NCBI GenBank assembly: GCA_002503705.1
Contig: DASH01000093.1
Coordinates: 1-49,837, forward strand
Source of the DNA: Candidatus Woesearchaeota archaeon UBA153
Lineage (GTDB): Archaea; Nanobdellota; Nanobdellia; Woesearchaeales; UBA525
Direction of reading: 5' to 3'
DNA: 49,837 bases
In this document: positions 1,158 to 45,572 of the stretch, piece by piece
How positions within the stretch are numbered: the stretch's first letter is position 1
Layout of the letters: each line of letters begins with the position of its first letter
Notes under the pieces: generated by a model
Seen by the model: only the letters and a program-made list of their open reading frames with translations
What the model was told of the DNA's origin: nothing
Databases searched by the model: none
Made by a program: the position numbers and the translations under genes

Positions 1158-2267
1158 ATGGAACACACGATGCTGAAGGAGCCCACGATGCTGAAGGAAC
1201 ACATGGCACTGAAAAAAACACTCCTGGAGCACGCGATGCAACAGGCCGGATTGGAGACGCGGCAGAGCGAATCAGGCGTCACGTCCTCGACCGCGTGCAT
1301 CGTCATCCCCACCTATAACGAAGCGCAGAACATCACCGCGCTCCTCGACCGGATCTTCGAGAACGAACGACGCCAACCGCGGACGCAGGACGGGTGGCGG
1401 CTGAGCGTCCTCGTCGTCGACGACAGCTCGCCCGACGGCACTGCGAACAAGGTGACCGCGTACGCGAAACGAAACCCGAACGTCCACCTCCTGCTCAGGA
1501 AAGAGAAGCAAGGCCTCGGCGCCGCGTACATCGCCGGGATGCAGCACGCGATGCAGCTCCTCGACCCTGAAGTCGTGATGGAGATGGACGCTGATTTCAG
1601 CCATAACCCGAAAGACATCTTCCCCATCCTCGCGGCGATCTCGAACGGCGCGGACTTCGTCATCGGGTCACGCTACATCAAAGGAGGCAGCATCCCGAAA
1701 GAGTGGGGGCTGCACCGCCGCGTCATCAGCAAGGCGGCCAACCTCTACACGAAGATGGTGCTCCGCATCCCGAAAGTCAAGGACTGCAGCGGCGGCTTCC
1801 GCGCCATCCGGAGCGACACCCTGCGCCGAGTCGATCTCTCCTCTCTCAACGTGAAAGGCTACGCGTTCCAAGTCCTCCTCCTCGAAGCGGCGGTCCGCAC
1901 CGGCGCGATCGTCCGCGAAGTGCCCATCGCGTTCCTGGAACGGAACGCCGGCAAGAGCAAGATCCGCGTCACCGACATGGTGGAAGGCGCCGCCCTCATC
2001 CTGCAGGTCGGCTCGCAACGCCTCTTCAGTCCTGGAACGAGCGAGACGACCGCGCGCAAGACGCCAAGTCCGACAGGACAGATTGGACCGTATGGCGTCA
2101 CGTCGCAGTACAGCGCGTCCATTGCGGTGACAGCGGGCCAGAACGTTGCCGAATCGGCGAGCACCACCACAGTAGATAACACCGGGGGCGTCGGCGGGGT
2201 CGGTGGCGTCGGCGGCGAGTCCGCCGTGAGCGAGCCGCCACAGCACCAGGCGAGCATGAAGACGTAA
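1158..2267 (+). CDS. GT2 polyprenyl-phosphate sugar synthase (Dpm1/GtrB/CsbB-like)
   Basis: CIVIPTYNE...VLVVDDSSPDGT...GLGAAY...MDADFSHNP...VIGSRY...GGFR...ERNAGKSK, typical of dolichyl/polyprenyl-phosphate mannose or glucose synthases. The N-terminus carries a duplicated TMLKE peptide and the C-terminus a GGVGGVGGVGG tail. The true start could be slightly downstream. Confidence 0.85.
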   Translation: MEHTMLKEPTMLKEHMALKKTLLEHAMQQAGLETRQSESGVTSSTACIVIPTYNEAQNITALLDRIFENERRQPRTQDGWRLSVLVVDDSSPDGTANKVTAYAKRNPNVHLLLRKEKQGLGAAYIAGMQHAMQLLDPEVVMEMDADFSHNPKDIFPILAAISNGADFVIGSRYIKGGSIPKEWGLHRRVISKAANLYTKMVLRIPKVKDCSGGFRAIRSDTLRRVDLSSLNVKGYAFQVLLLEAAVRTGAIVREVPIAFLERNAGKSKIRVTDMVEGAALILQVGSQRLFSPGTSETTARKTPSPTGQIGPYGVTSQYSASIAVTAGQNVAESASTTTVDNTGGVGGVGGVGGESAVSEPPQHQASMKT

Positions 2268-2302
2268 CGGAACAACACCATGATATCCGGAGGTCAAACG
2301 GC

Positions 2303-5300
2303 ATGAGCAGCATCGATAAAGACTCCAAGATACGCGGCAATCACAACAAGCGCCCCTCACCCGCGCTCCTGAAGTTCCGAAAGTTCTTCCTCTTCGGCGT
2401 CGTGGGCGGCTTCGGCACGGTGCTGAACACCGTCATCCTCTACGGGCTCACGCATTTCGCCGGCCTCTATTACCTCCTCGCGGCCGCCATCGCGACCGAA
2501 ACGGCGATCGTCTCAAACTTCTTCGGCAACCACTTCTTCACGTTCCGCAACGACCGTGACGCCACGCCGCTCTGGCGCCGCTTCCTCTCCTTCCAAGCGA
2601 TCAGCCTCGTCACCCTCGTCGGGACGCTCGTCATCCTCTACACGCTCACCACGCTCTTCGGAGAGACATACCTCCTGCTCTGGAACCTCATCGCAATCCT
2701 CGTGATGTTCCTCGCGAACTTCGCGCTCAACCGGAAGTTCACTTGGAGAGCCGGCGCGGAGACGCACGAAAAGCGCTCATCGTCAAGGGACTCATCGTCG
2801 AGAGACGCATCGTCGCGGAGTGCGAGCGGCGGCAAGCTCTCGTTCCTCCTCTTCTTCCTCGTCATGGCGTTCTGCATCGCCCTGCCCGTCGCTCACGCCG
2901 CGGACATCGCCGCGACGAGCCAGTTCGGCCACCACCCCTTGAGCGAAAAACAGGTCATCCTCTACACGCTCCAGACTGGCGCCGCGAGCGGCACGTTCAC
3001 CGTCAACGGCGCTCCCGGCTTCACGAACAGACCGCTCACGGTGCCCGTCGACGGCAACAATGTTCCGACGACGTGCCAAGGCGGGCTCTCCTGCCTCGTG
3101 GGAGACTTCACAGACCTCACCACGACGGGAACTTATACGATCACGACGACCGCTGGCGGACAGAGCCACACGACCGCGCAATTCCAGGTCAGCCCGGACC
3201 TCTACGCGGACAATCTCCACACGCTCTTCGACTTCTTCGACGCTGAACGGCAGCAAGGCTCGAACTATCACGCCGACATGAACGGATTCCAGAGCCCGGC
3301 ATTTCCCATGATTGCCGACGGGAGCTTCCTCATCCAGACCGACCAGGCCGCGCTCGCCACCGTACGGCTCGGCAGCGCGTACCGTCGCAATCCAGCCATC
3401 TTCTCCAACGCGATGAGGACGTACATCGTCGACTACACCGACTACCTCCTCGGCCTTCGCGGCGCGCACGCAGTCCCTGGCGCTGGCCCGTACCGCTTCG
3501 GATGGGATATGTCGCCGCAGAACGCCTTCATCCCGAACCAGACGAGCATCACGACCCTGCAGCTCTACGACACGAACGGCGGCCTTTCGCAGACCGTCCC
3601 AGTCACGAGCCTCTGCGGGGCGAGCAGTTCTCCCGGGTGGCAGTCGTGCATCGACCAAGCGATGACGCTCTACCATTGCGACGTCAACGAGCCATGCCTC
3701 AACCTCACGTACACCGGCGCGAAAGGGACGATCGCGATCACGCCGGGCGACCACACCTACCCCGCGGGGTGGATGTATGATTGGAACTGCTTCCTTGACG
3801 CTCGTCTCGACACCGGCATGTTCAACGACGCGCCGAACCCTTGCCTGATGTTCGATGACGAACGAGGCGACGACATGTACACGATCTACTCGTTCGCCGC
3901 GCTCACCCAGGCGATTCCCGCCCTCTACGACCAAGACCCTGCGAAGGCGACCATCGCCTACGATGAAGCGAAAGCCATCGCGGCACAGATAGGAGACTCC
4001 TACACCACCACGACGGTCGACACGCTCGCCGGGCCGAAGACCATGACTGCTGAAGAGAAATACGCGTGGGCCGGGATGGGTCTCTTCCTCCTCTACGATT
4101 ACAGCGGCGACCAGGCGTACCTGCTCCGCGCGTACAACTACCGAACCAACGTCAGGAGCGACGGCTTCGACTCGGGCGCCACCTTCGGCAACGAGTTCTA
4201 CTGGGAGGAGTACATCCGGCACGAGGGCGCGATCATCGCCGCTGGCCGAGAATACACGATCGCGGGGAACGACCCTCGCGAGCTCTTGACGGGCAAGATG
4301 GCCTCCGACTGGGAGAACAACGACCCGATCGATATCTCGCGCTCCGGTGAACGCGTCTTCCAGAAGATGCGCGCGACCGGGTTCTCGATCAGCCGTTCGC
4401 TCCTCATCGAAGCGGTCTACGCGATGAAGACCCTGGAGCTCGCGCCTTCGACCGCGCCGCCGTTCACGCAGATGATCGCGGACAGCCAGCTCGCCTGGCT
4501 CACCGGACAGAACGTCGTGCAGGACGGCGAGACCGGCACCGCGCCCCTGCGCAGTTACAGCTTCATCTTCGGCCTTGGGCAGGACAATCCGGCGCAGTAC
4601 CACAGCCGATACCTCATCGACACAGGACTCTTCACCGCTTCCGGCGGTTCCCTGCTCGGCGCGCGAGGCATCGATTACCAGTTCATGCATAATGGCGCTC
4701 TCTCCTGGATGGATGGGCGGAGCGACATCATGGGCCAGGCCTTCGGCGCCATCGGCAATGACCTCGGCCCGAAGGTCAACCCCTGGCTTCCCAGCAGGAC
4801 GTACGCGAACGGTCAGACTTCCATTCTCGGTTGGATCAACGGCGCGTTCGACACTGACGACGGAGACGTCACCCTCAACTATTTAGACGACCAGGAGGCG
4901 TATCTCTTCACCGAGTCGACGAACGAGAAGGTCGCGGCGGCGGTGGAGCTCTTCGCCTACCTAGACGGAGCGTACAACGACCGGGTTCGGCACGCGCCCG
5001 TCGTGTTGGGGACCGGGAGCAATTCCACCCCTCCTGTGCTGTCGAACGCGACGCTCAAGGTCTACACCACGCCGGTCGGCGCGTCCATCGCGTTGAATGG
5101 CACGCTGCAAGGCGTCACGGCGATCGACGGTCTCACCGTCACCGTCGCTCCGGGCAACTACGCGCTCACCGCGAGCAAGAGCGGCTATACAACGATGTTT
5201 CAAGCCATCGCTCTGGTCGCGAATCAGACACGAATCGTCAACCTCACGCTCACGCCGAGCAGTGACGTCGCGACGCTCAAGGTCTTCACCACCCCGACGG

Positions 5301-7054
5301 GAGCGACCATCGCGTTGGACGGAATACCGAAAGGTGTCACGGCGATCGACGGTCTCACCGTCACCGTCGTTCCGGGCGACTACGCGCTCACCGCGAGCAA
5401 GAGCGGCTATGCGCTCGTCACGCAACCGGTGACGCTCATCACGAACACCACGACGACCGTGAACCTCTTCCTGCACGTGACGAACTCCACAATCATCGCG
5501 AACGGGACGGACGTCTCGCTCGCGACGAACTCCAGCACCGGAGCAACGCATCATCTCTATGAGATCGACACCGGCAGGTTCTGGGTGACGCTGCAGGACG
5601 CCGGCACCGTGACGTGGCTTGTCGACGGTGTCGTGAAGACGTTGACGGGCGGGCAGAACAGCACGTTCAACTGGACGCCCGGGATTCTCGCGGTGCCGGT
5701 GGCGCCGCTCTACACCAACACGCGGCTGTTCACGGTGGTGGCGAAGACGGCGAACGGGAATATCACGTGGACGGTCGACGTTGAGAACGTCCTCAACCCG
5801 TTCTTCCAAGGGACGTTCGGCGCTCCGGACACCCTCATCCACGTCTTCACGAACAACAAGTATGGCGTCAATTTCACCGCGGTGAGTGTCACGCTCGACA
5901 ACAGCGGCGCGCTCGCAGTCTACAGTCTCGTGCCGGTCTCGGGCGGTGCCGAGACTGACTGGCAGAAGCTCGCGACCAACCTTCCGACAGGCAATAGCTG
6001 GCTCAGGAAGGTCGCTACTCTCGACACCAACGGCGTCAGCACGACCTATACGCTCGGCGATGTTCGGGCGCATTACCGCACGCCATCGAGCAATAACGAT
6101 AACGACAATTCGGGCGGCGGAGGCGGTCGAGGGGGCGGAGGAGGTTTCCCTGAAGCTGAGATTCTGCAGCTCGTGTACGTCACGTTCGCTCACGACGTCC
6201 TGGATGAGACCGACTCGCAGACGATCACGTTAGACGCGAGGACGAACAACAGCGAAATACGGCGCGTCGAAGCGCTTTTGGAGACGCCGAGCGGGGCGGG
6301 CCTGCGACTGGAGCTGAACCTCACGGCCGGCGACCGCGGCTACGGGACGTGGTCGGAGGAGTTCTCCGGTTTCATCCCAGGAGAGTATATCCTGAAGGAA
6401 ATCGATCTCTGGGGGTTCGAGAAGAATGCGACGAAGATCCCCGTGAGCGACAGATCGTTCTACGTCGTCGGTCCCGAGACGGGCGCTGGCGCTGGCGCGA
6501 AACCGCTCACGCTCATCTATACGCTCCTGACGCCGAGCGTCATCGGGAACGGCACGAACGCCACGCTCCGGCTCGACGCCGCCGATCAAATCGGCATCAC
6601 CCTCGTCACGGCGAACATAACGACGTCGCGAGGCGAGTCATTCCAAATCCCCCTGCACCGGGTCGCCGGGACGTCGCAGTACGGGACGTGGGAAGGAACG
6701 CTCGACGGGACGACACCCGACACGACGTACGTTGTCACCAGCATCACCTTGAAGAGCGCCGTCGCGAGCAAGATGTTCCTGACCAGCGGCCGGAGCGTCT
6801 ACGTGCAGGCGCTCCCGACCCCTGAAGGCGGATCACTCATCACTGGCGCGGTCGCCGGCGTCTCTGCCTTCTCCAGCGAAGCGTTCGCGGCCATCGTCGC
6901 GAAGCCGATCATCCCGATTGCGGTCGGTTTCGGCATCATGCTCGTCACTCTCGCCGTGCTCTCCCTCAATTATCAGATCAAAAAGAAGCTGCGCGGAAAG
7001 GAGTACGGAAAGGAGCGCGGAAAGGAGTACGGAAAGGACGCGCGGCGACCGTGA
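2303..7054 (+). CDS. Fusion protein: N-terminal GtrA-like 4-TM domain, GH9-like (alpha/alpha)6 glycanase region, two PEGA repeats, Ig-like repeats, C-terminal TM anchor
   Basis: GtrA-like: FLLFGVVGGFGTVLNTVILY...ETAIVSNFFGNHFFTFRN...NFALNRKFTW. GH9-like: DLYADNLHTLFDFFDAERQQG, SYSFIFGLGQDNPAQYHSR (His signature) and YLDDQEAYLFTEST (Glu signature). PEGA x2: LKVYTTPVGASIALNG...YALTASKSGY. SD-like ggaggt lies upstream of the ATG. Confidence 0.8.
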   Translation: MSSIDKDSKIRGNHNKRPSPALLKFRKFFLFGVVGGFGTVLNTVILYGLTHFAGLYYLLAAAIATETAIVSNFFGNHFFTFRNDRDATPLWRRFLSFQAISLVTLVGTLVILYTLTTLFGETYLLLWNLIAILVMFLANFALNRKFTWRAGAETHEKRSSSRDSSSRDASSRSASGGKLSFLLFFLVMAFCIALPVAHAADIAATSQFGHHPLSEKQVILYTLQTGAASGTFTVNGAPGFTNRPLTVPVDGNNVPTTCQGGLSCLVGDFTDLTTTGTYTITTTAGGQSHTTAQFQVSPDLYADNLHTLFDFFDAERQQGSNYHADMNGFQSPAFPMIADGSFLIQTDQAALATVRLGSAYRRNPAIFSNAMRTYIVDYTDYLLGLRGAHAVPGAGPYRFGWDMSPQNAFIPNQTSITTLQLYDTNGGLSQTVPVTSLCGASSSPGWQSCIDQAMTLYHCDVNEPCLNLTYTGAKGTIAITPGDHTYPAGWMYDWNCFLDARLDTGMFNDAPNPCLMFDDERGDDMYTIYSFAALTQAIPALYDQDPAKATIAYDEAKAIAAQIGDSYTTTTVDTLAGPKTMTAEEKYAWAGMGLFLLYDYSGDQAYLLRAYNYRTNVRSDGFDSGATFGNEFYWEEYIRHEGAIIAAGREYTIAGNDPRELLTGKMASDWENNDPIDISRSGERVFQKMRATGFSISRSLLIEAVYAMKTLELAPSTAPPFTQMIADSQLAWLTGQNVVQDGETGTAPLRSYSFIFGLGQDNPAQYHSRYLIDTGLFTASGGSLLGARGIDYQFMHNGALSWMDGRSDIMGQAFGAIGNDLGPKVNPWLPSRTYANGQTSILGWINGAFDTDDGDVTLNYLDDQEAYLFTESTNEKVAAAVELFAYLDGAYNDRVRHAPVVLGTGSNSTPPVLSNATLKVYTTPVGASIALNGTLQGVTAIDGLTVTVAPGNYALTASKSGYTTMFQAIALVANQTRIVNLTLTPSSDVATLKVFTTPTGATIALDGIPKGVTAIDGLTVTVVPGDYALTASKSGYALVTQPVTLITNTTTTVNLFLHVTNSTIIANGTDVSLATNSSTGATHHLYEIDTGRFWVTLQDAGTVTWLVDGVVKTLTGGQNSTFNWTPGILAVPVAPLYTNTRLFTVVAKTANGNITWTVDVENVLNPFFQGTFGAPDTLIHVFTNNKYGVNFTAVSVTLDNSGALAVYSLVPVSGGAETDWQKLATNLPTGNSWLRKVATLDTNGVSTTYTLGDVRAHYRTPSSNNDNDNSGGGGGRGGGGGFPEAEILQLVYVTFAHDVLDETDSQTITLDARTNNSEIRRVEALLETPSGAGLRLELNLTAGDRGYGTWSEEFSGFIPGEYILKEIDLWGFEKNATKIPVSDRSFYVVGPETGAGAGAKPLTLIYTLLTPSVIGNGTNATLRLDAADQIGITLVTANITTSRGESFQIPLHRVAGTSQYGTWEGTLDGTTPDTTYVVTSITLKSAVASKMFLTSGRSVYVQALPTPEGGSLITGAVAGVSAFSSEAFAAIVAKPIIPIAVGFGIMLVTLAVLSLNYQIKKKLRGKEYGKERGKEYGKDARRP
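5048..5491 (+). repeat. Tandem 222-nt (74-aa) PEGA-domain duplication inside the CDS
   Basis: Units start at 5048 and 5270. They share identical runs of 34 nt (gtcacggcgatcgacggtctcaccgtcaccgtcg) and 32 nt (actacgcgctcaccgcgagcaagagcggctat). Confidence 0.85.
6994..7041 (+). repeat. 4 x 12-nt in-frame tandem repeat at the CDS 3' end (GKEY GKER GKEY GKDA)
   Basis: cggaaaggagta cggaaaggagcg cggaaaggagta cggaaaggacgc, immediately before the stop and overlapping start at 7051-7054. Confidence 0.85.
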
Positions 7055-8691
7055 GCGAGGACAGAGGGACTATCATGGGCGTCCTGATACGGCCACTCCG
7101 GAAGATGCAGGTCGCGTTCATCATCCTCTTCGGACTCGCCAGCCTCCTCCTGATGGGCTACTACTTCTCGGATACGCTCCTCCATTACACGACGATGCAG
7201 CAGTTCCCCATCAACTCGTTCCAGCGTTTCGCCCTCACCATCCTCATCTTCCCCGCCGAGCTCTTCTCCTTCGGCTTCGCCCTCTACTTCGTCTACGTGC
7301 TCCTGCTGGGGCAACGTCCGCAAGAGCGGCCGCGACCGCTCGACGGCCAAGAGAAGACGCCTGTCGCAATACTCATCCCGGTGTACAACGAGCCGAAAGA
7401 GGTAGTTGACCGGACGCTGTCCGCCTGCAAGCTCGTCCGCTGGCCGGGTGCGACGCGCATCTACCTCCTCGACGATTCGAACAACGAGGAGGAGAAGGCG
7501 GTCATGGACTCGTTGGCGAAACGCCACGGCTGCACGATCGTGCGTCGGCCTGATCGCGTCGGTTACAAAGCGGGCAACATCAATAACGCGCTCCGGAAGA
7601 CGGTGAAGGAGCCGTTCTTCATGATTCTCGACTCTGACCAGGCGCCGGTGCCGGAATTCCTCGAGCGGACCATGGACCATTTCAGCGACCCGACCGTCGG
7701 CTTCGTCCAGACGCCGCAGCATTTCATCAACGAAGGCACGCCGATCGAACGAGGGGCGAAGATCGGCACGAACATCTTCTACTCCGCGCAGTGCCTCGGC
7801 AAGTCCCATGACAGCGCGTTGCCGTTCTGCGGCACGAACGCGGTGCTCCGCGCCTCGGCGTTCCGCGGCGTCGGCGGATTCCAGTACTTCAGCGCGACGG
7901 AGGACATCGAGCTCGGCCTCCGCATGAACCAGGCCGGCTATCACGGCATGTACGTTCCGGAGATCCTCGCCCACGGCTACGCGCCGCCCGACTTCGCCGC
8001 CTACTCGTCGCAGCAGTACCGCTGGGCGAACGGCAACCTCGCGATCCTCCGCGAATCATGGCGCGGAATCCTCTTCGGCCGCTTCTCCTTGCGGCAGCAG
8101 ATCCACACCCTCTTCACCCTCGGTTGGTGGCTCGTGGGAGTCGCGACGCTCATCTACATCACCGTCCCGATACTCTCGCTCGCGTTCGGCCTCGGCACGC
8201 ACCACACGTGGCTGCCGACGGCGCTGCTCGTCGTCCTCTACTTCAACGTCGTCTTAGGAATCCTCATGATCTACGTCTCGCTCCACGGCAGGGTGAAAGG
8301 CGAGAAAGTGAAGATCTCTGACGCTTTCCTCCAGTACGTGTTAATCACGAACAGCATCTTCATCTTCTCGCGCGCCGCGTTCAACGCGGCCATCGGCAGG
8401 TACGTCGGCTTCGTCCGCACGAACAAGCGCCGAACAGGTGTCGGACTCGGTCTCATCAAGTGGAATCTCCTCCTCGCCGCGCTCTGTCTCGGCTTCAGCT
8501 TCTACGCGCTCGTCATGGCCTCGATCTCGAGCGACCTGCAACAGCTGCGCACCTACTTTCCGGTCTCCCTCTGGCTCCTCTACTACAGCCTCATCCTCGC
8601 CAGCTCAATCATCTTCGTCGGGAAAGAACGGATGCTGACCGGAGTGCCGCAGCCGCAAGGCACGACGAGTCTCCGAGGGCTGAAAAAATGA
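7051..8691 (+). CDS. Processive family-2 beta-glycosyltransferase, cellulose-synthase-like (BcsA/CesA-type core, no PilZ domain seen)
   Basis: Motifs LLDDSNNEEE (D), ILDSDQAP (DxD), SATEDIELGLRM (TED) and QQYRWANG (QxxRW), flanked by N- and C-terminal TM helices. The GTG start overlaps the upstream TGA (GTGA). An alternative ATG lies at 7075. Confidence 0.85.
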   Translation: MSEDRGTIMGVLIRPLRKMQVAFIILFGLASLLLMGYYFSDTLLHYTTMQQFPINSFQRFALTILIFPAELFSFGFALYFVYVLLLGQRPQERPRPLDGQEKTPVAILIPVYNEPKEVVDRTLSACKLVRWPGATRIYLLDDSNNEEEKAVMDSLAKRHGCTIVRRPDRVGYKAGNINNALRKTVKEPFFMILDSDQAPVPEFLERTMDHFSDPTVGFVQTPQHFINEGTPIERGAKIGTNIFYSAQCLGKSHDSALPFCGTNAVLRASAFRGVGGFQYFSATEDIELGLRMNQAGYHGMYVPEILAHGYAPPDFAAYSSQQYRWANGNLAILRESWRGILFGRFSLRQQIHTLFTLGWWLVGVATLIYITVPILSLAFGLGTHHTWLPTALLVVLYFNVVLGILMIYVSLHGRVKGEKVKISDAFLQYVLITNSIFIFSRAAFNAAIGRYVGFVRTNKRRTGVGLGLIKWNLLLAALCLGFSFYALVMASISSDLQQLRTYFPVSLWLLYYSLILASSIIFVGKERMLTGVPQPQGTTSLRGLKK

Positions 8692-11093
8692 CGGTGAACA
8701 TGACGGTGAACGATACGGTGAACGAGCAGCGCCCCGGCCGGAGCTACGGTTACGAGGACGGAACGCTCATCCGGAACAAGCCGTCGACCTCGTGGCGGTG
8801 GTGGCTCGCCCTTTTCATCGCACTCCTGCTCATCCTCGGGTTCTGGTTCGCGCTCGACCAGAAGCTGCTCTTCGGCGAGGCGTGGCTCTCCGAGACGTAC
8901 GATAACGTCGACTGGCGCACGAACGAGGGCAACCTCCACACGTTCGGCGCGTGGGATCTCGAGGCGCACATCTGGAAGACCGAGTATATCATGCAATGGT
9001 TTCCGAACTTCCATTGGAACCCGTACTGGTATCTCGGCATGCCGCTCCTCAAGTATTACCAGTCAGGATTCTACGTGGCCCACTGGCTCACCATCATGGC
9101 GACGGGGCTCTCCGCCCCGCGCGCCGCGCTCATCCTCATCATCTTCAGCCACTTGCTCGCCACGCTTGTCACCTTCCTCCTCTGCTACAAGCTCTCGCGA
9201 CGCGTCTTGGTCTCGGCGCTCGCCGCCACGTTCGTGCTGAGCAACACGTTCATCTCGCTCCGCAGCTACGGCTGGGAGCCGATCACCGTCACGTTCCTCT
9301 TCCTCTTCCCCCTCGGACTCCTCCTCTTCTTCAAGGAGCCGCTCCGTCCGTTGCGGTTCTGGCTCATCCTCCTCCTCGGCATCGCGTACCTCTGCCATCC
9401 GCTCCTCTGGTTCTCGCTCTGCATGACGATGGGACTCTACCTCTTCTCCATCGCGATCAGGAAGACGAAGGAGCCGAATGGCGCGTACCGCCATTACCTC
9501 TGGCAGTACTTCGTGCTCGTCTTCTGCAGCATCATCATCGGCGCAGTCCAGTTCCTCCCTCAGATCAGCTATCAGCAGGCGAGTTCGGGAGCGCACATGG
9601 GCGTGACCTACTTGCCGTTCTACCAAGTGCCGCCGAACATCATCACGTTATGGGATTTCTTTTTCGATGCGGGCAACCTCAAGGGGCCAGGGCCTATCAT
9701 CATGATCGCGTTCTTCCTCCTCCTCTTCTTCGGCGTCGTCGAGTACTTGGCTTGGCGGGCGCGCAGGAAACAGAAAGCGGGAAATCTTCGAGCGGGAAAT
9801 CTTCGAGCGGGAAATCCTCAAGCGAACAATCTTCCTGCGGGAAATCCTCGAACGGGCGATCTCGCAACGCAATCTCACGACGGACACTCAGGAATCTTCT
9901 CGCACGAGCTCGTCGCGGGCCTCGCCTTCGTCCTTGTCGTCATGGTCCTCTTCTACTATCTCGAGCGCTTCAACATCTTCCCGATGAACGTGCTGCGCTC
10001 CATCCAATACCATCGCATCATCCCGGAGTTCATCATCGTCGCGGCCGCGCTCATCGCCGTCATCGCCAACATCGCCAGGACGCAGTGGCAGAAGGCGGTC
10101 TATTACACGGTGCTCATCGCCTTCGTCGCCGCCTCGACAATCGTGATCTACAACGTCCAGACGCATTGGCAGACGACCGACAGCATCAGCGACAAGCCGG
10201 AATTCCTCACCGACACGATTCCGGGACGTATCAGCATGCCGTACACCGACCAGAGCCTCTCCGTGCGGAGCTCGTTCCAAGCCATCCCGCAGACCTACGG
10301 CTACTACGAGCAAGGCATCACGAACGCGTACGACGACGAGATGTTCTCCGTCTCGTCAGGGTACCACAACGCCGACCTCACCACCCTCTACCTGAAAGCG
10401 GCGAACGTCGGACGCCTCTACGTCAATACGGAGGAAGGCGAGCGCGACCGGATCGTGCAGAAGCGGCTGAACAGCACGCTTTCGTACGTCCACGAGCCGA
10501 AGAGCCGTTACGCATACTTCGCCGTGCCCCTCGCGAACCCCGCGTTCGCCCAGGCGGTCGACTCAAGGGCGGCGTCGAACGTGACCGCGCTCGCTCCTGG
10601 TTGTCGCGTCCTCTTCATGGAGACGTATTGCGGCAGCGTGGGAGAAGAGTTCGTCAGCACCGATCCTGTCGAAGTGCGCTACCTCGCGGCGTACGTCGAG
10701 CTCCTCGAGAAGCCGGACGCCGCCACGGTGACGATGACGATGAAAGACCCGGACCATTACTTCATCGCGGTGCACAACGCGAGCGTGCGGACGGCGGTCG
10801 TGGTGAAGATGACGTACGACAAGGACTTCGTCGCCACCGTCAACGGCTACGAGGTGCCGATAACGAAGTTCGGCCCGGACTTCATGCTCATCTCCCCCGC
10901 GAGAGACGGCACGTACGGCATCATACTCGAGTATCGGGTCGACAAGCTCATCATCATCGGCGCGTTCATCAGCGTCCTCAGCATCCTCGGCCTCGCGCTC
11001 GCGTTCCTTTTCCGGCAACCTTTGCTCGCGCGCTTTGAAAAGATCAAGAAGAGGCACTGCCGTCTCCCGGACGGCGAAGGGGTGGGCCGATGA
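8688..11093 (+). CDS. Large polytopic membrane protein with C-terminal extracytoplasmic domain and terminal TM; YfhO-like GT-C glycosyltransferase candidate
   Basis: The start is taken at the ATG overlapping the upstream stop (ATGA). The track ORF from 8460 is an upstream extension in the same frame. There are more than 10 hydrophobic helices. The motif HIWKTEYIMQWFPNFHWNPYWYLGMPLLKYY resembles YfhO-type proteins. A soluble region of about 200 aa precedes the final TM LIIIGAFISVLSILGLALAFLF. Confidence 0.6.
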   Translation: MTVNMTVNDTVNEQRPGRSYGYEDGTLIRNKPSTSWRWWLALFIALLLILGFWFALDQKLLFGEAWLSETYDNVDWRTNEGNLHTFGAWDLEAHIWKTEYIMQWFPNFHWNPYWYLGMPLLKYYQSGFYVAHWLTIMATGLSAPRAALILIIFSHLLATLVTFLLCYKLSRRVLVSALAATFVLSNTFISLRSYGWEPITVTFLFLFPLGLLLFFKEPLRPLRFWLILLLGIAYLCHPLLWFSLCMTMGLYLFSIAIRKTKEPNGAYRHYLWQYFVLVFCSIIIGAVQFLPQISYQQASSGAHMGVTYLPFYQVPPNIITLWDFFFDAGNLKGPGPIIMIAFFLLLFFGVVEYLAWRARRKQKAGNLRAGNLRAGNPQANNLPAGNPRTGDLATQSHDGHSGIFSHELVAGLAFVLVVMVLFYYLERFNIFPMNVLRSIQYHRIIPEFIIVAAALIAVIANIARTQWQKAVYYTVLIAFVAASTIVIYNVQTHWQTTDSISDKPEFLTDTIPGRISMPYTDQSLSVRSSFQAIPQTYGYYEQGITNAYDDEMFSVSSGYHNADLTTLYLKAANVGRLYVNTEEGERDRIVQKRLNSTLSYVHEPKSRYAYFAVPLANPAFAQAVDSRAASNVTALAPGCRVLFMETYCGSVGEEFVSTDPVEVRYLAAYVELLEKPDAATVTMTMKDPDHYFIAVHNASVRTAVVVKMTYDKDFVATVNGYEVPITKFGPDFMLISPARDGTYGIILEYRVDKLIIIGAFISVLSILGLALAFLFRQPLLARFEKIKKRHCRLPDGEGVGR
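8691..8726 (+). repeat. 3 x 12-nt in-frame tandem repeat at the CDS 5' end (TVNM TVND TVNE)
   Basis: acggtgaacatg acggtgaacgat acggtgaacgag, directly after the start codon. Confidence 0.85.
9777..9866 (+). repeat. 6 x 15-nt in-frame tandem repeat encoding pentapeptide AGNLR-type units
   Basis: gcgggaaatcttcga x2, then the variants gcgggaaatcctcaa, gcgaacaatcttcct, gcgggaaatcctcga and acgggcgatctcgca. Protein: AGNLRAGNLRAGNPQANNLPAGNPRTGDL, in a loop between TM segments. Confidence 0.85.
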
Positions 11094-12448
11094 GCGCTGA
11101 GAGGAAGAGGTTCTGGCCGCGGTGGAAACTCGCTCTTCTCGGGAGCATCCTGCTCCTCTACGTCGGCGTCGGCGTCCTCCTCCTGCTCCTCGTGCATGAA
11201 GGGGTCATCGAGCGGCTCCCCCCGACTCCGATAGCCGTCGCCGGCAATGATTCGATCCAAGAGCCCGTCACGCTTGAGGTGAGCGTCAATCTCAGAGCGG
11301 CAGAGGCTTTCTTCCAGACGCAGATGATTCGAGAAGACGGCCACATCTTCCTCTACCGTCTCGTCACGGAGGACGGTACGTCTGCGAATGACAGCAACAC
11401 GAACAGTGAAGCGGCGAGCTACTACCTGCTCTGGACCGCGCAGGCGAAGCAGAAAGGGGCGTTCGATACGGAACTCGCCTTCGTGGAGACCAAGATGCTC
11501 CACCCCGTCGGAGACTACCTCCAGTGGCGGCTCTCCGAGAACGGCATGGTCGAGAGCGATGGCGGGAACATCGCTTCCGACGCCGACCTGCGCGCAATCA
11601 GAGCGCTCCTCATCGCCGAGAAGCAATGGGGCGACGAGCGGTACACGTCGCTGATTGACACGCTCGCGCGCGGTCTCGAACAGACCGCGTTCACCAAAGA
11701 CGGGCTTCTCGCGCCGTATGGCGGGATGTCGGGAACGAAGCCGTGGATTGCGGACGAGTCATGGCTCTCCTACAGCGACTTCACCGTCTTCAAGGCGCTC
11801 TCCGAGCGGCGTGGCGTGGCGTGGTTGAAGATGTACGCGAAGATGAAGTCTGCCGTTCTCGGCGCGCAGATCCAGAACGGGCTCTACAATTCACAGATCA
11901 CCCTGCAACGCCAGTACGGCAACGGCATCGACGGCGGCGGCTACAGCATCAACTCGATGTGGCTCATGGCGAGGAACGCGGAGAGCGGCGATCCTGACCT
12001 CGTCGCCTCGGCGAGCCGATCGCTCGCCTTCTACAAGCAGGCGTTCAGCCGGAACGCGGAGATTGACACGCTGTACGACTCGAATGGCGACGCCCTCTCG
12101 TCCGGCGACGCGCCGTGGGTGTACGCGCTCATCGGACGGGCGGCGGTGGCGCTCGGCGACCGCGAGTTCAGCGACGCCATGCTGGCGAAACTTGTCGAGA
12201 AGCAGGACATGGACTGCTCGTCGCCGCACTACGGTTCGTTCCCCGAGGGCGTGTCGGGCAACGGGCGGCAGGAGCGCGTCGGCCAGTTCACCATGCAGGA
12301 GGCGATCCTGACGATGCAGGCGTACGTGCAGAGTCGAGGGGGGGCTCTCGACGCGCCGATTGGGCAGGCCGGAGATGCGGTCGCGGCGTGCGAGGAGGAG
12401 ACGCACGACGCTTCACCATCAAAGAATCGTGAGAAAAGAGAGTCGTGA
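11090..12448 (+). CDS. Membrane-anchored glycoside hydrolase family 8 endoglucanase-like protein (BcsZ-like role)
   Basis: N-terminal TM LALLGSILLLYVGVGVLLLLLV. Catalytic-Glu motif NSEAASYYLLW (compare SEGQxYGML). GH8 signature-like ASDADLRAIRALLIAEKQW. The ATG overlaps the upstream stop (ATGA). Confidence 0.75.
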   Translation: MSAERKRFWPRWKLALLGSILLLYVGVGVLLLLLVHEGVIERLPPTPIAVAGNDSIQEPVTLEVSVNLRAAEAFFQTQMIREDGHIFLYRLVTEDGTSANDSNTNSEAASYYLLWTAQAKQKGAFDTELAFVETKMLHPVGDYLQWRLSENGMVESDGGNIASDADLRAIRALLIAEKQWGDERYTSLIDTLARGLEQTAFTKDGLLAPYGGMSGTKPWIADESWLSYSDFTVFKALSERRGVAWLKMYAKMKSAVLGAQIQNGLYNSQITLQRQYGNGIDGGGYSINSMWLMARNAESGDPDLVASASRSLAFYKQAFSRNAEIDTLYDSNGDALSSGDAPWVYALIGRAAVALGDREFSDAMLAKLVEKQDMDCSSPHYGSFPEGVSGNGRQERVGQFTMQEAILTMQAYVQSRGGALDAPIGQAGDAVAACEEETHDASPSKNREKRES

Positions 12449-12489
12449 GAAAAGAGAATCGTGAGAAAAGAGAATCGTGAGAAAAATAC
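12421..12489 (+). repeat. About 4 x 16-nt tandem repeat spanning the stop codon of the GH8 gene
   Basis: Repeat tract gaatcgtgagaaaaga gagtcgtgagaaaaga gaatcgtgagaaaaga gaatcgtgagaaaaat. The stop TGA at 12446-12448 is part of a repeat unit. Confidence 0.85.
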
Positions 12490-12520
12490 TTGTGGGGAAA
12501 AACTACGGAGATGATACCCA

Positions 12521-13003
12521 ATGGATGAACTCCAACAAACGCATCGGAGAGGTCATCGGAAGGAGGTCGTCGTCGCGGTGAGCGGCGGGTTCGATCCCGT
12601 GCACATCGGCCACGTCCGCCTCTTCAATGAGGCGAAGCGGCTCGGCGACCACCTCGTGGTGATCGTGAACAACGATAACTGGCTGCGGCGCAAGAAAGGG
12701 TTCGCGTTCATGCCGGAATCGGAGCGGCAGGAGATTATCGAATCCTTCCGTGCCGTCGACGAGGTCATGCTCACCTTCCACAAACCGGAGACGACGGACA
12801 CGTCCGTCTGCGCAGAGCTCGAGGCGCTCAAGCCAGACCTCTTCGCGAACGGCGGGGACCGCAAGGCGGAGAACGTCCCGGAGTATGAGGTGTGCGAGCG
12901 GCTCGGCATCCGCATGGCCTTCGGCGTCGGCGCGGGCGGCAAGGTGCAGAGCTCGAGCGACCTCGTCAAGCGCGCCCGCGAGCTCGCGGCGATGCAAGGC
13001 TGA
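12521..13003 (+). CDS. Cytidylyltransferase-family nucleotidyltransferase (TagD/RfaE-domain-II/RibL-like)
   Basis: VAVSGGFDPVHIGHVRLFNEAKRLGDHLVVIVNNDNWL, that is the (H/T)xGH nucleotidyltransferase motif in a Rossmann-like context. About 160 aa. Confidence 0.8.
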   Translation: MDELQQTHRRGHRKEVVVAVSGGFDPVHIGHVRLFNEAKRLGDHLVVIVNNDNWLRRKKGFAFMPESERQEIIESFRAVDEVMLTFHKPETTDTSVCAELEALKPDLFANGGDRKAENVPEYEVCERLGIRMAFGVGAGGKVQSSSDLVKRARELAAMQG

Positions 13004-13135
13004 CCTCGCGCTCTTCGGCATGTGTCGTCCGTCTCCTCGCGGCAGAAGTCGTATGAAATGAATGCTATTGAAAGAGTACGTACGAGAACGTTCACGAAAA
13101 GTTTGATGACAATATAACGTCCGACGAAGACGACA

Positions 13136-13280
13136 GTGAAGAAATCCCTGACGACGAAACGAACGAGAAGAAAAAACGACGACGAACGAGATGAAGAAAC
13201 TCCTGACGACGAAGCGCGCGATGAAGATGAGTCGTAAGATGAATATACTGAGAACGAGGAAATCCGCGACGAGACGGATG
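13136..13280 (+). repeat. Purine-rich intergenic tract with three dispersed copies of about 25 nt
   Basis: gaagaaatccctgacgacgaaacg, gaagaaactcctgacgacgaagcg and gaggaaatccgcgacgagacgg, spaced about 55-60 nt apart between convergent genes. The plus strand is strongly G+A biased. Confidence 0.6.
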
Positions 13281-13290
13281 ACTGGCGTCT

Positions 13291-15555
13291 TTACGCGGTG
13301 AAGCTCGCGAAGCCGGTCGCCGGCCCGACGCACGCGCTCTTGACGCAGATGGACGCGGGGTTCGCGGCCTGCTGGAGGTACAGCTCGTACGTGTTGCCGC
13401 CCTTGGCGCACGCCTTCGCCTGGATCTCGCCGCTCGTCGTCGTGTAGCGCACAGTCCGGCACGTGCCGTCCGACGTATCGGTGAGCTTGCTGCCGGAAGG
13501 GTTCACCGTGAACGTGAAGCTGTCGACGCCCACCGGCGGCGCGCAGACAGCTCCGTCGTCAACGACGCCATTGCAGTCGTTATCCTTCTGGTCGCACACC
13601 TCGGTGCCGGGTGTTCCCGCAGTCGCGCTGCACGTCGTCCCGCCGCTCGCGGTGCACACTTGCACGCCGGTACGGACGCACTCGCCGACGCCGACGCTGC
13701 ACGAGGAGCCGACGTTGAACCCCTCATCGACTTGACCGTCGCAATCGTTATCCTTGCCGTCGCACGTTTCCGCGCTCGGTGTGCAAGCCGGAGGAGTGGT
13801 CGTCGTCGGAATGAACCGGACGAAGCCTTGGTCCTTCGTCACGCACCCGTTCGCGAGGCACGCGCTGAAACTCATGCCGGAAGGCGCGGCCTGACGGTAA
13901 AGCTCGATGTAGCCGCCGCCCTTCTCGCAACCAAGGACCTGGATGTCGCCCGCGACGGTGCTCCACAGCATCGTCCGGCAGACGCCGCTCGTTACGTCGC
14001 TCTTCGACGTGCAGGCCACGGCCGTGCTGCCCGCGACACACGACTTCGGGAGCGAGCCGATGCCGCTCGTCGGTGGTTGCGGGCAGACGCCATCCTCATC
14101 GACTTGACCGTCGCAATCGTTATCCTTGCCGTCACAGATTTCCATCGTCGGAGCGCAGGTCGGCAGGGGGGTGCTGCTGAGAGCGGGGAAGGCCGGAAGG
14201 TCGAGGCCGATCCCCATGCCGAGCGCGCGGACCGCGAACGCTGCGTGGTAGACGCCGAAGCACGAGGTGTAATCCCACGTGCCGGTCGAGAGCGCGTAAT
14301 GGCCGAGCGCGTTGTCGAGGATCTGGGCGAACGAGGACTTGTGCGTGCACCCTGCCTCGTGGAGCGCTTGCAGGCCTTGGGCGAAGTAGCCGCTCTGCGC
14401 CGTTCCCGCGCTGCCGTCCGGCTTGTACTGGAGGGGGATGCTGTTGGTGTTCTGGCTGTAACGCGCGTGCCACGAGTCACAGTACGCCGTGAGCAGGGGA
14501 AGTTGGTACCCGATGACGCCCGCATAGTAGTTCGCCTGGCACATCCCGAAGGCGCGAGTCGCATCAGCATCGTCCCAGATGACCGGCGAACAGCTGCTCG
14601 TGCATTCCGCAGTGGGAACGTTGTTCGCGCCAGTCACCCACTTGAAACTCCTGCCGGGAGGCACGGTGAAGTCCTTACCGTTGAACTTGCTCGCTTCGAG
14701 GTAGTTGAGTGTGAAGTTGGCTGCCACCGAGCAATACGTCCTGTTGCCGGTCTGGCTGCACGCCTCGAGCATGGCAGTAATCGCATCAGCGTAGTAGCCG
14801 GTGTACGCGTAGTCGTTCGAGGCAAGGCCGCCACGCTTCGCGTCGCTGCCCGCCGCGAGCCAGTAGCAGATCTGCCCCTCGCCGAGGCTGCTCGGCCGAC
14901 AAGTCTTGTCCACTTCATATTTGAGGAACGCGTTGGAAAGGCTCTTCGCGAGCGCTCCATACTGCTCCTTCTTGATCGCGTCGGTGAAGGCGGGGTTCTT
15001 GGCCGCGGTGAAGAGCGCGATGATGATGCGCGCCGTGCCGTCGCTGGCGGTGTCGCAGTTCCCGTTGATGCCTGCTCGGCAGGGTTGGATGCTATTGCCG
15101 TCGCGGTAGATCCGCCACGCGGGGAGGCCGCCGTTCGTGCTCGCGATCGCTTTGACTGTCGTGTAGAACTGGTTCATGCGCGTTTGGTCCTTGCCCATCG
15201 CGACGAGGATGCCGACTTGGCTGAACTCATCCGTGACCATGCAGTTGTGGGTGAAGTCGATGGTCAAGCCGGAGTCGCACGCCGCGCCGGACTGGAGATC
15301 GCTCTGGCCGCAACGGTCGCTGCGCGAGAACCAGGGCACCCAGAGTTTATCGCCCTCGATGACCGTCGCGACCTTGCCGTTCGCGTAGAGCGCGTTCACG
15401 AGCGTGTCGTAGTTCGCGTCGCGCGTCTCGCCGCCGAAGCCTGCGCTGGTCGGGCTCACGAGCGGCTGCGCCGCGAGCGTGAATGGAACCGTGATGAGAA
15501 TGAGTCCCAGGAGGAACAGCGCTGCCGGAAAAAGTTTACGCTGTTGAAAGACCAC
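13291..15555 (-). CDS. Secreted GH8-like (alpha/alpha)6 domain protein with C-terminal Cys-rich CDGxDNDCDGxVDE repeats
   Basis: Signal peptide MVFQQRKLFPAALFLLGLILITVPFTLAAQP. GH8-like VTDEFSQVGILVAM and DTASDGTARIIIALFTAAKN. Three copies of C(D/E)xCDGKDNDCDGQVDE-type motifs separate predicted beta-rich modules. Confidence 0.7.
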   Translation of the reverse strand: MVFQQRKLFPAALFLLGLILITVPFTLAAQPLVSPTSAGFGGETRDANYDTLVNALYANGKVATVIEGDKLWVPWFSRSDRCGQSDLQSGAACDSGLTIDFTHNCMVTDEFSQVGILVAMGKDQTRMNQFYTTVKAIASTNGGLPAWRIYRDGNSIQPCRAGINGNCDTASDGTARIIIALFTAAKNPAFTDAIKKEQYGALAKSLSNAFLKYEVDKTCRPSSLGEGQICYWLAAGSDAKRGGLASNDYAYTGYYADAITAMLEACSQTGNRTYCSVAANFTLNYLEASKFNGKDFTVPPGRSFKWVTGANNVPTAECTSSCSPVIWDDADATRAFGMCQANYYAGVIGYQLPLLTAYCDSWHARYSQNTNSIPLQYKPDGSAGTAQSGYFAQGLQALHEAGCTHKSSFAQILDNALGHYALSTGTWDYTSCFGVYHAAFAVRALGMGIGLDLPAFPALSSTPLPTCAPTMEICDGKDNDCDGQVDEDGVCPQPPTSGIGSLPKSCVAGSTAVACTSKSDVTSGVCRTMLWSTVAGDIQVLGCEKGGGYIELYRQAAPSGMSFSACLANGCVTKDQGFVRFIPTTTTPPACTPSAETCDGKDNDCDGQVDEGFNVGSSCSVGVGECVRTGVQVCTASGGTTCSATAGTPGTEVCDQKDNDCNGVVDDGAVCAPPVGVDSFTFTVNPSGSKLTDTSDGTCRTVRYTTTSGEIQAKACAKGGNTYELYLQQAANPASICVKSACVGPATGFASFTA

Positions 15556-15948: not shown

Positions 15949-16848
15949 TTACGTGGGAGTCTGCACCACCTGCAATAAGCCGGTCTCGCTCGTCTCGTTG
16001 TTCATCGCCGTGCAACTCACGTCGAATGTGCCCGAACCGTACGCGTGCCAGACGTTGTCCGAGGACATCCCGAGGAGTTTCGATCCGTCTCCGAAATCCC
16101 AATCGTAACTCGTCGGCGTGAAGCCGGTCGCGGTGCAGACGAAGACGTAGACGCTGCCTTGCGGATAGTACGGCGCCACGCTCAAGACTGCGGCGTTCGA
16201 TTCCGAATCGCTCGTGTTCGTCGGCGTCTCCGGGATGCCGCCCGCGATGATCTTCGAGGCTCCGACGCGGTATGCCGAGTTGGACGCCGCGCAGTTCACC
16301 GTGTACGACCCTGACTGGTCGAAGCGATGGAAGACGTCGTTGACCGGCATGTCATACAGCTTCTGTCCGTCGCCGAAATCCCAATCGTAACTGGTCGGGG
16401 TGAATCCGAAGGCGTTGCAATTGAAGACGTAGTCGCGCCCGTCCGGACCCTGCGGGAAGTACGGCGCTATCTGCAGCTCTGCCGACTGGTCCCCGATCGG
16501 AGGAACGGTCTGGTTCGTGCCGACGCCAACGCGAAGCAGGTAGACCTTGTTGAAGGTCTCGTTCGACGCGGTGCACGCGACTTCATACTCTCCGCTCTGC
16601 GTGTAGGTATGATACACGTTATTTGAGGTCATGTCCATCAGTTTCTGCCCGTCGCCGAAGCTGAAATCGTACGTCGTCGCCGCGAAGCCGGGGTTGCAGA
16701 CGAAGACATAGTTGCTCCCTTGCGGGTACCATTGCATGATGCTGATGTCTCCGCTCGCAGTCGCGCTCGCCGCCGAGATCACGAAGAGCATCGCCAACAC
16801 GCCGATACCGCTCAAGCCCATCATCGAGTTTTTCATTGAGTTTTTCAT
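15949..16848 (-). CDS. Secreted protein with three PKD-like repeats
   Basis: Signal or TM segment GLSGIGVLAMLFVISAASATA. Three repeats of YVF(V/N)C...TPTSYDWDFGDG(Q/S)KL...H.Y...G.Y.V.C.A.N. The N-terminus has a duplicated MKNS from a 12-nt repeat (16826-16848). Confidence 0.85.
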   Translation of the reverse strand: MKNSMKNSMMGLSGIGVLAMLFVISAASATASGDISIMQWYPQGSNYVFVCNPGFAATTYDFSFGDGQKLMDMTSNNVYHTYTQSGEYEVACTASNETFNKVYLLRVGVGTNQTVPPIGDQSAELQIAPYFPQGPDGRDYVFNCNAFGFTPTSYDWDFGDGQKLYDMPVNDVFHRFDQSGSYTVNCAASNSAYRVGASKIIAGGIPETPTNTSDSESNAAVLSVAPYYPQGSVYVFVCTATGFTPTSYDWDFGDGSKLLGMSSDNVWHAYGSGTFDVSCTAMNNETSETGLLQVVQTPT

Positions 16849-17136: not shown

Positions 17137-17410
17137 CTGACCGGACCGGACAATCAAGACCACATCCGCGTCCGGCGCATCTCACTCTTCAAAGATATCC
17201 CTGAAGATGTCTCGACGAGATTGCCGACGGGGGGACGTCGCCGGCACGTCTTTGAAAAGAGTGCCCTTGGCAAATGCGTCTTTGAGGTGCCATGACGATG
17301 CAAGAACTGCGAAAACGAGAACGACAGCGATCAATTCATTCCACAATGCCTTCCCTGCCGAGGCATTCTCCCTCTCTTCATTCCCCGCCCACTCATCCTC
17401 TGGCTCTTCA

Positions 17411-17470
17411 TTCCCCACTCATTCATTCCCCACTCATTCATTCCCCACTCATTCATTCCCCACTCATTCA
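17411..17470 (+). repeat. 4 x 15-nt perfect tandem repeat (ttccccactcattca) with degenerate flanking units
   Basis: Perfect units at 17411, 17426, 17441 and 17456. Degenerate copies extend to about 17377 and 17483. It lies just upstream of the preferred start at 17504. Confidence 0.9.
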
Positions 17471-17503
17471 TTTTCCATTCATCTCCGCCAGGAGGCGCTC
17501 CCT

Positions 17504-18313: not shown

Positions 18314-18314
18314 C

Positions 18315-22677: not shown

Positions 22678-22699
22678 TAGTGCGTTCATTTTTCTCGCA

Positions 22700-45571: not shown

Positions 45572-45572
45572 A

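Follow-up and report, generated by a model that had tools for sequence, protein, structure and literature searches.

What does an archaeon make with an operon in which a cellulose-synthase-like enzyme stands beside the parts of a lipid-linked glycosylation system? The question is raised by a contig of Candidatus Woesearchaeota archaeon UBA153 (GCA_002503705.1, contig DASH01000093.1), of which a stretch of 49,837 nt, hereafter the window, was analyzed. Five plus-strand open reading frames (ORFs), g1 to g5, span positions 1158–12448 and encode a soluble glycosyltransferase of family 2 (GT2), a very large surface protein, a BcsA-like synthase, a candidate GT-C-fold glycosyltransferase and a glycoside hydrolase of family 8 (GH8) (table 1). 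That this region is a surface-glycan biosynthesis operon we regard as close to certain. Acting as a full chain from g1 to g5, it would build and remodel a cell-surface β-glycan, most likely a cellulose-like β-1,4-glucan, a reading on which we are evenly poised. In DPANN archaea genomes are very small and biosynthetic pathways few, and the envelope and the structures that attach the cell to a host have scarcely been characterised; the hosts considered here (Woesearchaeota/Nanoarchaeia) are probably symbiotic.

Gene Order and Conservation

A first-pass annotation of the window had described five consecutive plus-strand genes of which the last four overlap, and both the ORF list and the overlap sequences agree with it. 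Stop and start codons are shared in GTGA at 7051 (g2/g3), ATGA at 8688 (g3/g4) and ATGA at 11090 (g4/g5), and through these overlaps g2-g3-g4-g5 are translationally coupled. A scan of one genome per GTDB species gave 25 genome loci, to which three metagenome loci were added (L001–L028), and synteny was assessed by tblastn with seven window proteins, namely those of g1 to g5 and of two downstream neighbours (g6 and g7). The gene linkage recurs in 25/25 genome loci, and the order g1-g2-g3-g4-g5 is kept in these and in the three metagenome loci as far as contigs reach. The loci are mostly labelled as Woesearchaeota/Nanoarchaeia metagenome-assembled genomes (MAGs), names that fit the archaeal origin proposed in the first pass, and the GC content of the genomes runs from 31% to 63%. 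The best-conserved members are g3 (56–65% amino acid identity) and g4 (49–76%).

Variation falls on particular parts. The segment of g2 with a fold of glycoside hydrolase family 9 (GH9) is absent from that gene in L008, L012, L013 and L019; L013, L017 and L018 carry it downstream as a gene of its own. In two of the 13 informative loci, L005 and L012, the cluster has neither g1 nor the GtrA domain of g2, and L015 also lacks the GtrA domain; a three-component set (polyprenyl-phosphate-sugar synthase, GtrA module and GT-C protein) is accordingly found in the window and in most loci, these three being the exceptions. Given this variation in the GH9-fold segment, g1, the GtrA domain and the neighbours g6 and g7, the invariant core comprises the C-terminal stalk and anchor of g2 together with g3, g4 and g5.

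A BcsA-Like Synthase and a Tethered GH8 Glycanase

The product of g3 matches Rhodobacter BcsA (PDB 4p00, 1.3e-40; also 5ej1), with g3 residues 8–383 aligned to BcsA residues 39–428 and the DDS, KAGN, DSD, QTPxxF, FCGT, TED and QQYRW motifs all falling at the BcsA positions. The catalytic residues are D141-D142, D194xD196, FCGT259–262, T283-E-D285 and Q321QYRW325, and the motifs (D, DxD, TED, QxxRW, FxCGT, KAGN) are kept in 22–23 of 23 orthologues. Pfam places the protein in PF13632, PF13641 and PF03552. The first-pass description of a processive GT2 carrying D, DxD, TED and QxxRW is thus borne out, and g3 is BcsA-like rather than a member of a non-processive family. Hydrophobic segments at residues 16–41, 60–87, 353–413 and 462–525 correspond to two N-terminal and four to five C-terminal transmembrane helices, which are predicted to flank the glycosyltransferase domain as in the BcsA translocation channel. 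The protein ends at residue 546, and neither PilZ (PF07238) nor BcsB (PF03170) was matched in any cluster product, as the first pass had also held.

The last gene of the operon, g5, encodes a GH8 enzyme (PF01270, 2.6e-11, 43.6 bits against a gathering cut-off of 24) with PDB matches to 3ren (5e-10) and CelA (1cem, 3.7e-5). Its E107 aligns with the catalytic Glu (SEG) of Clostridium CelA and its ASDAD with the TDAD of that enzyme; E107 is kept in 24/24 and D164 in 23/23 orthologues, and D166 is also conserved. A hydropathy scan places a transmembrane helix at residues 12–43, and the original label of a membrane-anchored GH8 holds on all these counts.

A Putative Dolichol-Phosphate-Hexose Synthase in Two Parts

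The GT2 encoded by g1 (PF00535, 1.3e-28) aligns over residues 41–273 with the catalytic domain (residues 20–235) of the dolichol-phosphate-mannose synthase (DPMS) of Pyrococcus furiosus (5mlz, 3.5e-30). Its top NCBIfam models are AglJ, PgfS, PpgS and a haloarchaeal dolichol-phosphate-hexose transferase, every score lying below the cut-off of its model, and the DDS, DAD (144–146) and GSRY motifs are kept in 11/11 orthologues. These matches uphold the proposal of a Dpm1/GtrB-like polyprenyl-phosphate sugar synthase. A hydropathy scan of g1 found no hydrophobic or transmembrane segment. A four-helix GtrA domain stands at the N-terminus of g2 (table 1), where it aligns with the transmembrane domain of the same Pyrococcus enzyme (residues 256–373, 1.6e-5).

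Because each matches one half of 5mlz, g1 and the g2 N-terminus look like a split DPMS of the Pyrococcus type. The alignments suggest that the two halves of such a synthase reside here on two polypeptides, the membrane half being fused to a giant surface protein with its glycanase-fold domain and stalk, whereas the Pyrococcus enzyme carries both in one chain; the eukaryotic DPM1/DPM3 and the mycobacterial Ppm1/Ppm2 offer split enzymes for comparison. The GtrA domain had been called flippase-like, and of that label the domain itself stands; the match to the transmembrane half of a DPMS refines it, flipping being just one possible role.

The Surface Part of g2

A fifth hydrophobic helix follows the GtrA domain and, to judge from hydropathy, would put the remainder of g2 outside the cell. 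The first extracellular domain would be of the immunoglobulin (Ig)-like CelD_N type, matched weakly in the window protein (0.004) and clearly in its relatives (15 of 17 homologues, best 3e-14). The domain of about 600 residues that comes next had no Pfam match in the window protein, PF00759 included, even at E=10; among homologues PF00759 was found in 1 of 17 by our own scan and in three by precomputed annotation. In a PDB search with a profile of the region, GH9 chains aligned with its Ig domain only. An AlphaFold2 (AF2) model of residues 190–910, built from a 17-sequence alignment (predicted local distance difference test, pLDDT, 74.6; predicted template modelling score, pTM, 0.81), returned GH9 enzymes as all of its top 16 Foldseek matches in the PDB (E 1.7e-12 to 2e-5), among them a metagenomic GH9 (3x17), AaCel9A, CbhA, CelD and VC0615, of the Ig plus GH9 type. 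The prediction that residues ~206–895 adopt an Ig plus GH9 fold is therefore sound as a model.

Catalytic sites were mapped by eye with GH9 patterns of the PROSITE kind. On this mapping ADGS occupies the site where DAGD is expected, D339 is kept in 16/16 sequences, and the signature-like motifs H767-x-R769 and Y-x-D-x4-Y-x3-E871 are conserved; since the canonical DAGD is absent, the activity of the domain is uncertain. Of the GH9-like glycanase named in the first-pass annotation, the fold survives, while the catalytic motif is non-canonical and the family model unmatched in the window protein. A GH9-fold domain held at the membrane beside an enzyme of the cellulose synthase family recalls the plant protein KORRIGAN, which works with CesA; the archaeal domain differs in its ADGS, in its large insertions and in being absent or encoded by a separate gene in some loci.

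Beyond two PEGA-like domains lies an Ig-like region (residues 1060–1526) of about 470 residues that is internally duplicated, with the motif LDA.D...G...YGTW occurring twice, and that is the sole part of g2 present in every orthologue, including those without GH9 or GtrA parts. A BcsB-like role was considered for this region and set aside, a PDB profile search having given no BcsB and weak matches to filamin and titin Ig domains.

A New Family of GT-C-Fold Proteins

The window protein g4 had no Pfam match up to E=10, and no NCBIfam or PDB sequence match. Its AF2 model, based on a 44-sequence alignment (pLDDT 86.4, pTM 0.88), identifies it by structure: the top 29 Foldseek matches in the PDB are all GT-C proteins (AglB, AftD, STT3, AftA, PglB, DPY19, ArnT, EmbB and ALG12 among them). 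A GT-C fold is thus confidently predicted, with catalysis putative. The modelled architecture has ~13 transmembrane helices, a long first external loop, an extracellular α/β plus β-sandwich domain at residues ~495–750, and a C-terminal transmembrane helix. Within the first external loop (residues 62–126) D72 is kept in 43/44 sequences and D90, E92, H94 and K97 in 44/44.

The first-pass annotation had called g4 a YfhO-like GT-C candidate. The fold class stands; the family does not, as no YfhO (PF09586) was matched in the 44 family members scanned at E<=1 (a scan in which matches above ~0.1 were mostly filtered out). An exhaustive profile search from g4 gathered 602 relatives, ten of which were scanned with Pfam: six match PF10131 (PTPS_related), three of those also PF20176 (DUF6541), one gave a sub-threshold PF10131 only, three had no match, and 0/10 matched YfhO. 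PF10131, a family of unknown function, belongs to the GT-C clan CL0111 (PMC7801869). Close homologues number 101 (49–76% identity), none of them named, and those with a taxon label are almost all Candidatus Woesearchaeota, Nanoarchaeia or Nanoarchaeota. By these sequence comparisons g4 founds a family of its own, confined to Woesearchaeota/Nanoarchaeia and distantly related to PF10131/PF20176. Two distant relatives sit among genes for sugar nucleotides and glycosyltransferases.

Elsewhere in the window (43742–48110), two BatA/VWA-domain membrane proteins carry DUF7406, DUF7407 and DUF7408, the last of which recurs in a distant GT-C relative of g4 (P0239).

A Model of the Pathway

A processive synthase, two tethered glycanases and a GT-C protein accompanied by its usual dolichol-phosphate-sugar synthase, all coupled and, over deep divergence, syntenic, argue for a single envelope-glycan pathway. 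We propose that g3 polymerises a nucleotide sugar and that the growing chain passes through the membrane channel of this same enzyme, with no gating by cyclic di-GMP (c-di-GMP). On the outer face of the membrane, the GH8 of g5 would trim or release the chain, joined by the GH9-fold domain of g2 in those clusters that have it, in the manner of BcsZ and KORRIGAN. Meanwhile g1 would dock on the GtrA/DPMS-type N-terminus of g2 to complete a split dolichol-phosphate-hexose synthase, the lipid-linked sugar would reach the outer face, and g4 would transfer it to an extracellular acceptor. The most economical acceptor would be the nascent glucan, which would leave the polymer decorated or branched, and the Ig-like stalk and C-terminal anchor of g2 may keep such a machine assembled or steer the polymer. 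The overwhelming majority of characterised GH8 and GH9 enzymes have β-1,4 linkages as their targets. The polymer could serve as envelope, matrix or host attachment. That synthase/glycanase and polyprenyl-phosphate-sugar/GtrA/GT-C logics meet in one operon, as the first pass had noticed, is supported by hidden Markov model (HMM) searches, structure prediction and synteny alike.

The part of this model that joins g3 and g4 most closely is a tentative one, toward which we lean less than away: the two would form one coupled machine in which the emerging glucan is glycosylated, or moved to a lipid or protein anchor, by way of dolichol-phosphate-hexose. If true, a synthase-dependent pathway of a new class would yield a branched or anchored β-glucan, the glucan would be a wall, sheath or host-attachment matrix of Woesearchaeota, and DPANN archaea would have their first defined system for an envelope polysaccharide.

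Several observations weigh against the model as a whole. The best NCBIfam model for g3 is TIGR03030 (CelA) at 195 bits, against an equivalog cut-off of 699, and NF008558 scores 145 against 992; the CelA shortfall makes any assignment of substrate and linkage to g3 tentative. The catalytic DAGD of GH9 is replaced in g2 and the GH9-fold segment is missing from that gene in four loci, so that the domain may be dispensable or non-catalytic. As g1 and the GtrA domain, or the latter alone, are absent from three loci, the lipid-sugar supply is not obligatorily encoded in the cluster. The Foldseek TM-scores of g4 are modest (0.34–0.42), though all 29 matches belong to one fold class. Finally, the taxon labels come from those who deposited the MAGs, and a few (Acidobacteriota, Alphaproteobacteria, Methanosarcinales) do not fit the rest.

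Alternative Readings

The alternative that survives best, if still unlikely, separates the operon into two pathways: g3, g5 and the GH9-fold domain would make and trim a plain β-glucan, and g1, the GtrA domain and g4 would glycosylate proteins or lipids while leaving the glucan untouched, for example by O-hexosylation of the S-layer or of the g2 ectodomain, as GT-C enzymes of the PMT or DPY19 type do. The structural neighbours of g4 are mostly protein-modifying (AglB, STT3, PglB, DPY19), although AftD, AftA and ArnT, whose targets are polysaccharides or lipids, reach equally good scores. Very large surface proteins are encoded by g2 and neighbouring genes, and in L005 and L012 the cluster and the DPMS-like genes are not linked; yet the partner that stays with the synthase is g4, not g1, and in 25 genomes g4 is never found apart from g3 and g5, to both of which it is translationally coupled.

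A polymer of another kind is likewise improbable, though worth weighing in its own right: a glucan with mixed or β-1,3 linkages, or a polymer of hexosamines, whether like chitin/chitosan or not, with the GH8 and GH9 members adapted to it. The distance of g3 from the CelA equivalog cut-off is in its favour, as are the DSDQ that replaces the DADH motif of BcsA and the presence of VC0615 among the GH9 fold matches. Chitosanases, licheninases and xylanases are also found in GH8, and exo-glucosaminidases in GH9. Against this, CelA is by far the best model for g3 (MdoH reaching 68 bits, PgaC 63 and NodC 50), the FxCG(S/T) and QxxRW contexts agree with BcsA, and the nearest solved relatives of the GH8 and GH9 parts are mostly endoglucanases.

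We think it quite unlikely that g4 is a non-enzymatic, GT-C-derived scaffold that takes the role of BcsB in guiding the glucan away from g3, its extracellular domain binding carbohydrate. The cluster has no BcsB homologue, g4 has an extracellular β-sandwich domain and a C-terminal transmembrane helix as BcsB does, and its linkage to g3 persists in clusters that have neither g1 nor the GtrA domain. However, the first external loop of g4 has its invariant acidic, His and Lys residues at the place of the catalytic residues of GT-C enzymes, which counts against a non-enzyme, and a dedicated dolichol-phosphate-sugar synthase is encoded beside it in most genomes.

That the cluster is catabolic, its GH8 and GH9-like enzymes digesting cellulose of the environment or of a host to feed a scavenging symbiont and its glycosyltransferases being unrelated, is hardly credible: these are classical cellulase families, which metagenome surveys count as degradative, but here the hydrolases are tethered to the membrane and their genes show translational coupling to that of a processive synthase, the conserved cluster holds no sugar transporter or downstream catabolic gene, and pairing of synthase and glycanase is the rule in bcs operons.

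Relation to Known Systems

With bcs operons (BcsA-BcsB-BcsZ, with or without BcsC) the cluster shares a processive GT2 with flanking transmembrane helices and a GH8 of the BcsZ family in one operon. It differs in having no BcsB, BcsC or PilZ/c-di-GMP module, in a synthase below the CelA cut-off, in a membrane-anchored GH8, in the addition of a GH9-fold domain, a GT-C protein and a dolichol-phosphate-sugar synthase, and in its archaeal host. Gram-positive and actinobacterial variants without PilZ have been described in Clostridial CcsA/CcsB/CcsZ (PMC7710045) and Streptomyces CslA-GlxA-CslZ (PMC11022532).

Three-component systems are represented by GtrB/GtrA/GtrC of O-antigen, CsbB/GtcA/YfhO of lipoteichoic acid and PpgS/Rv3632/Rv3779 of mycobacterial arabinogalactan (PMC8035078, PMC11127046). 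They have in common with the cluster a polyprenyl-phosphate-sugar GT2, a four-helix GtrA module and a GT-C enzyme, and they modify a finished polymer outside the cytoplasm. Here, in contrast, g4 is by HMM neither YfhO nor GtrC, its nearest families being PF10131/PF20176, the GtrA domain is fused to a 1400-residue ectodomain, and the lipid would be dolichol. As far as we could find, this would be the first case in which a synthase-dependent, BcsA-type polymer is the putative target of a three-component system. The idea of modifying what BcsA has made once it is outside the membrane, with a donor carried by a lipid, has parallels in the phosphoethanolamine cellulose of BcsG and the acetylated cellulose of Wss; the modification in our cluster would be a GT-C glycosyl transfer, and there is no homology.

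The cluster thus resembles a bcs operon (BcsA plus BcsZ) merged with a GtrB/GtrA/GT-C system, and is a member of neither as these are defined. A review figure models one Woesearchaeota GT2 as cellulose-synthase-like (PMC10086821); beyond that figure, our literature search returned no account of this operon, none of the g4 family and none of a BcsA-type system paired with a GT-C enzyme, and the first-pass view of an undescribed pathway agrees with this.

Neighboring Genes and Carriers of the Operon

Downstream of the operon, g6 matches PF01467 (2.8e-14), consistent with the cytidylyltransferase-family label given in the first pass, and resembles RfaE domain II (2e-22, below cut-off). The convergent gene g7 encodes a secreted protein whose Cys-rich C-terminal half has three MopE-type motifs (PF11617 three times). 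Its N-terminal domain belongs to a secreted family with at least 86 members in the same archaeal group (Woesearchaeota/Nanoarchaeia) and no Pfam match, marked by invariant Cys, Asp and Trp residues and by an ASD...R.I.AL motif reminiscent of GH8. Over this motif hhalign against the g5 family gave 22% probability (P=9e-4), which is sub-threshold; a PDB profile search with the domain found nothing, and the weak matches within the family are to GH8 (1/34, at 0.047) and C5-epim_C (3/34, at 0.005 or weaker). Of the convergent, secreted, GH8-like protein first proposed, convergence and secretion stand and the GH8 likeness remains below threshold. The three (α/α)6 glycanases once counted are accordingly reduced to two with real glycanase folds, the GH8 of g5 and the GH9-fold domain of g2, that of g7 being unproven. 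Among related loci g6 adjoins the cluster in one (L028) and g7 is adjacent and convergent in one (L021), while in at least three operon-bearing MAGs the g7 family lies elsewhere in the genome, usually unlinked to the operon. On this synteny g6 and g7 were rejected as operon members.

Table 1. Coordinates of the genes and protein regions discussed, numbered from the first nucleotide of the window.
Feature	Position	Strand	Description	Evidence
g1	1158..2267	+	Soluble GT2, dolichol-phosphate-mannose/hexose synthase-like catalytic subunit, 369 aa	
g2	2303..7054	+	Multidomain membrane/surface protein, 1583 aa	
g2 aa 28–149	2384..2749	+	GtrA/DPMS four-helix transmembrane domain	PF04138 8.4e-23, 81 bits vs cut-off 26
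g2 aa 173–205	2819..2917	+	Fifth hydrophobic helix	Hydropathy scan
g2 aa ~206–895	2918..4987	+	CelD_N Ig-like domain and divergent GH9-fold (α/α)6 domain with large β-rich insertions (predicted)	
g2 aa 917–1060	5051..5482	+	Two PEGA/CarboxypepD_reg-like β-sandwich domains	PF08308 5.6e-18 (2 stretches), PF13620
g2 aa 1060–1526	5480..6880	+	Ig-like C-terminal extracellular region	tblastn across loci, alignment
g2 aa 1527–1559	6881..6979	+	C-terminal transmembrane anchor, then basic tail	Hydropathy scan, sequence
g3	7051..8691	+	BcsA-like processive GT2 synthase-translocase, 546 aa	
g4	8688..11093	+	Candidate GT-C-fold integral membrane glycosyltransferase, 801 aa	
g5	11090..12448	+	GH8 glycanase (BcsZ/CelA family), N-terminal membrane anchor, 452 aa	
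g6	12521..13003	+	Small cytidylyl/adenylyltransferase-family nucleotidyltransferase; downstream neighbor	
g7	13291..15555	-	Secreted protein, convergent to the cluster; variable neighbor	
g7 N-terminal domain	14176..15555	-	460 aa	Conserved

The wider neighborhood is rich in envelope proteins: predicted surface proteins at 15949–16848 (minus strand), 22535–23830, 26022–27170 and 27183–29996 carry PKD, FixG_C-type Ig, cadherin-like, TSP3 and CarboxypepD_reg domains. A second small GT2 of 234 residues (20785–21489, plus strand) and an NAD-dependent sugar epimerase/dehydratase (21523–22458, minus strand) possibly supply lipid-linked or nucleotide sugars to the cluster. Proteins of the PRK/uridine-kinase and inositol monophosphatase families are encoded back to back (18313/18315) at 17207–19160, and the only recognisable feature of a 944-residue protein at 40617–43451 is a resolvase-type helix-turn-helix near its C-terminus. 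Scans of the window for tRNA genes and Rfam families gave no match.

GC content is unusually high for the group in the window (~61%) and in L004 (63%), other carriers of the operon reaching down to 31%. The operon has been deposited under names other than Woesearchaeota in L004, L010, L012, L013, L015, L019, L021 and L022 (by title) and in L006, L007 and L025, such names including uncultured Methanosarcinales, Acidobacteriota, Alphaproteobacteria and Delongbacteria; these probably reflect placeholder taxonomy or mis-binned contigs. In a Nanoarchaeota MAG (L002/L014, 13563–22190), the operon is directly followed downstream by genes for an integrase, Prim-Pol, a D5-type primase-helicase, a resolvase and a GIY-YIG protein, a set resembling an integrated mobile element or provirus.

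Implications

An operon of 11 kb that is kept intact across genomes of 31–63% GC, in archaea with few pathways, is likely central to DPANN surface biology. The system described here would extend cellulose-type, synthase-dependent secretion to archaea in a defined genetic context, with neither c-di-GMP control nor BcsB, and would link such secretion for the first time to decoration by lipid-linked sugars and a GT-C enzyme. It would also provide a first functional context for the new GT-C family of g4 and, through g4, for the uncharacterised PF10131/PF20176 proteins. Where Woesearchaeota MAGs contain GH8 or GH9 genes, these should not be taken as a sign of cellulose degradation. On support that is purely computational, our findings give a little-explored group of archaea a testable pathway for an envelope polysaccharide.

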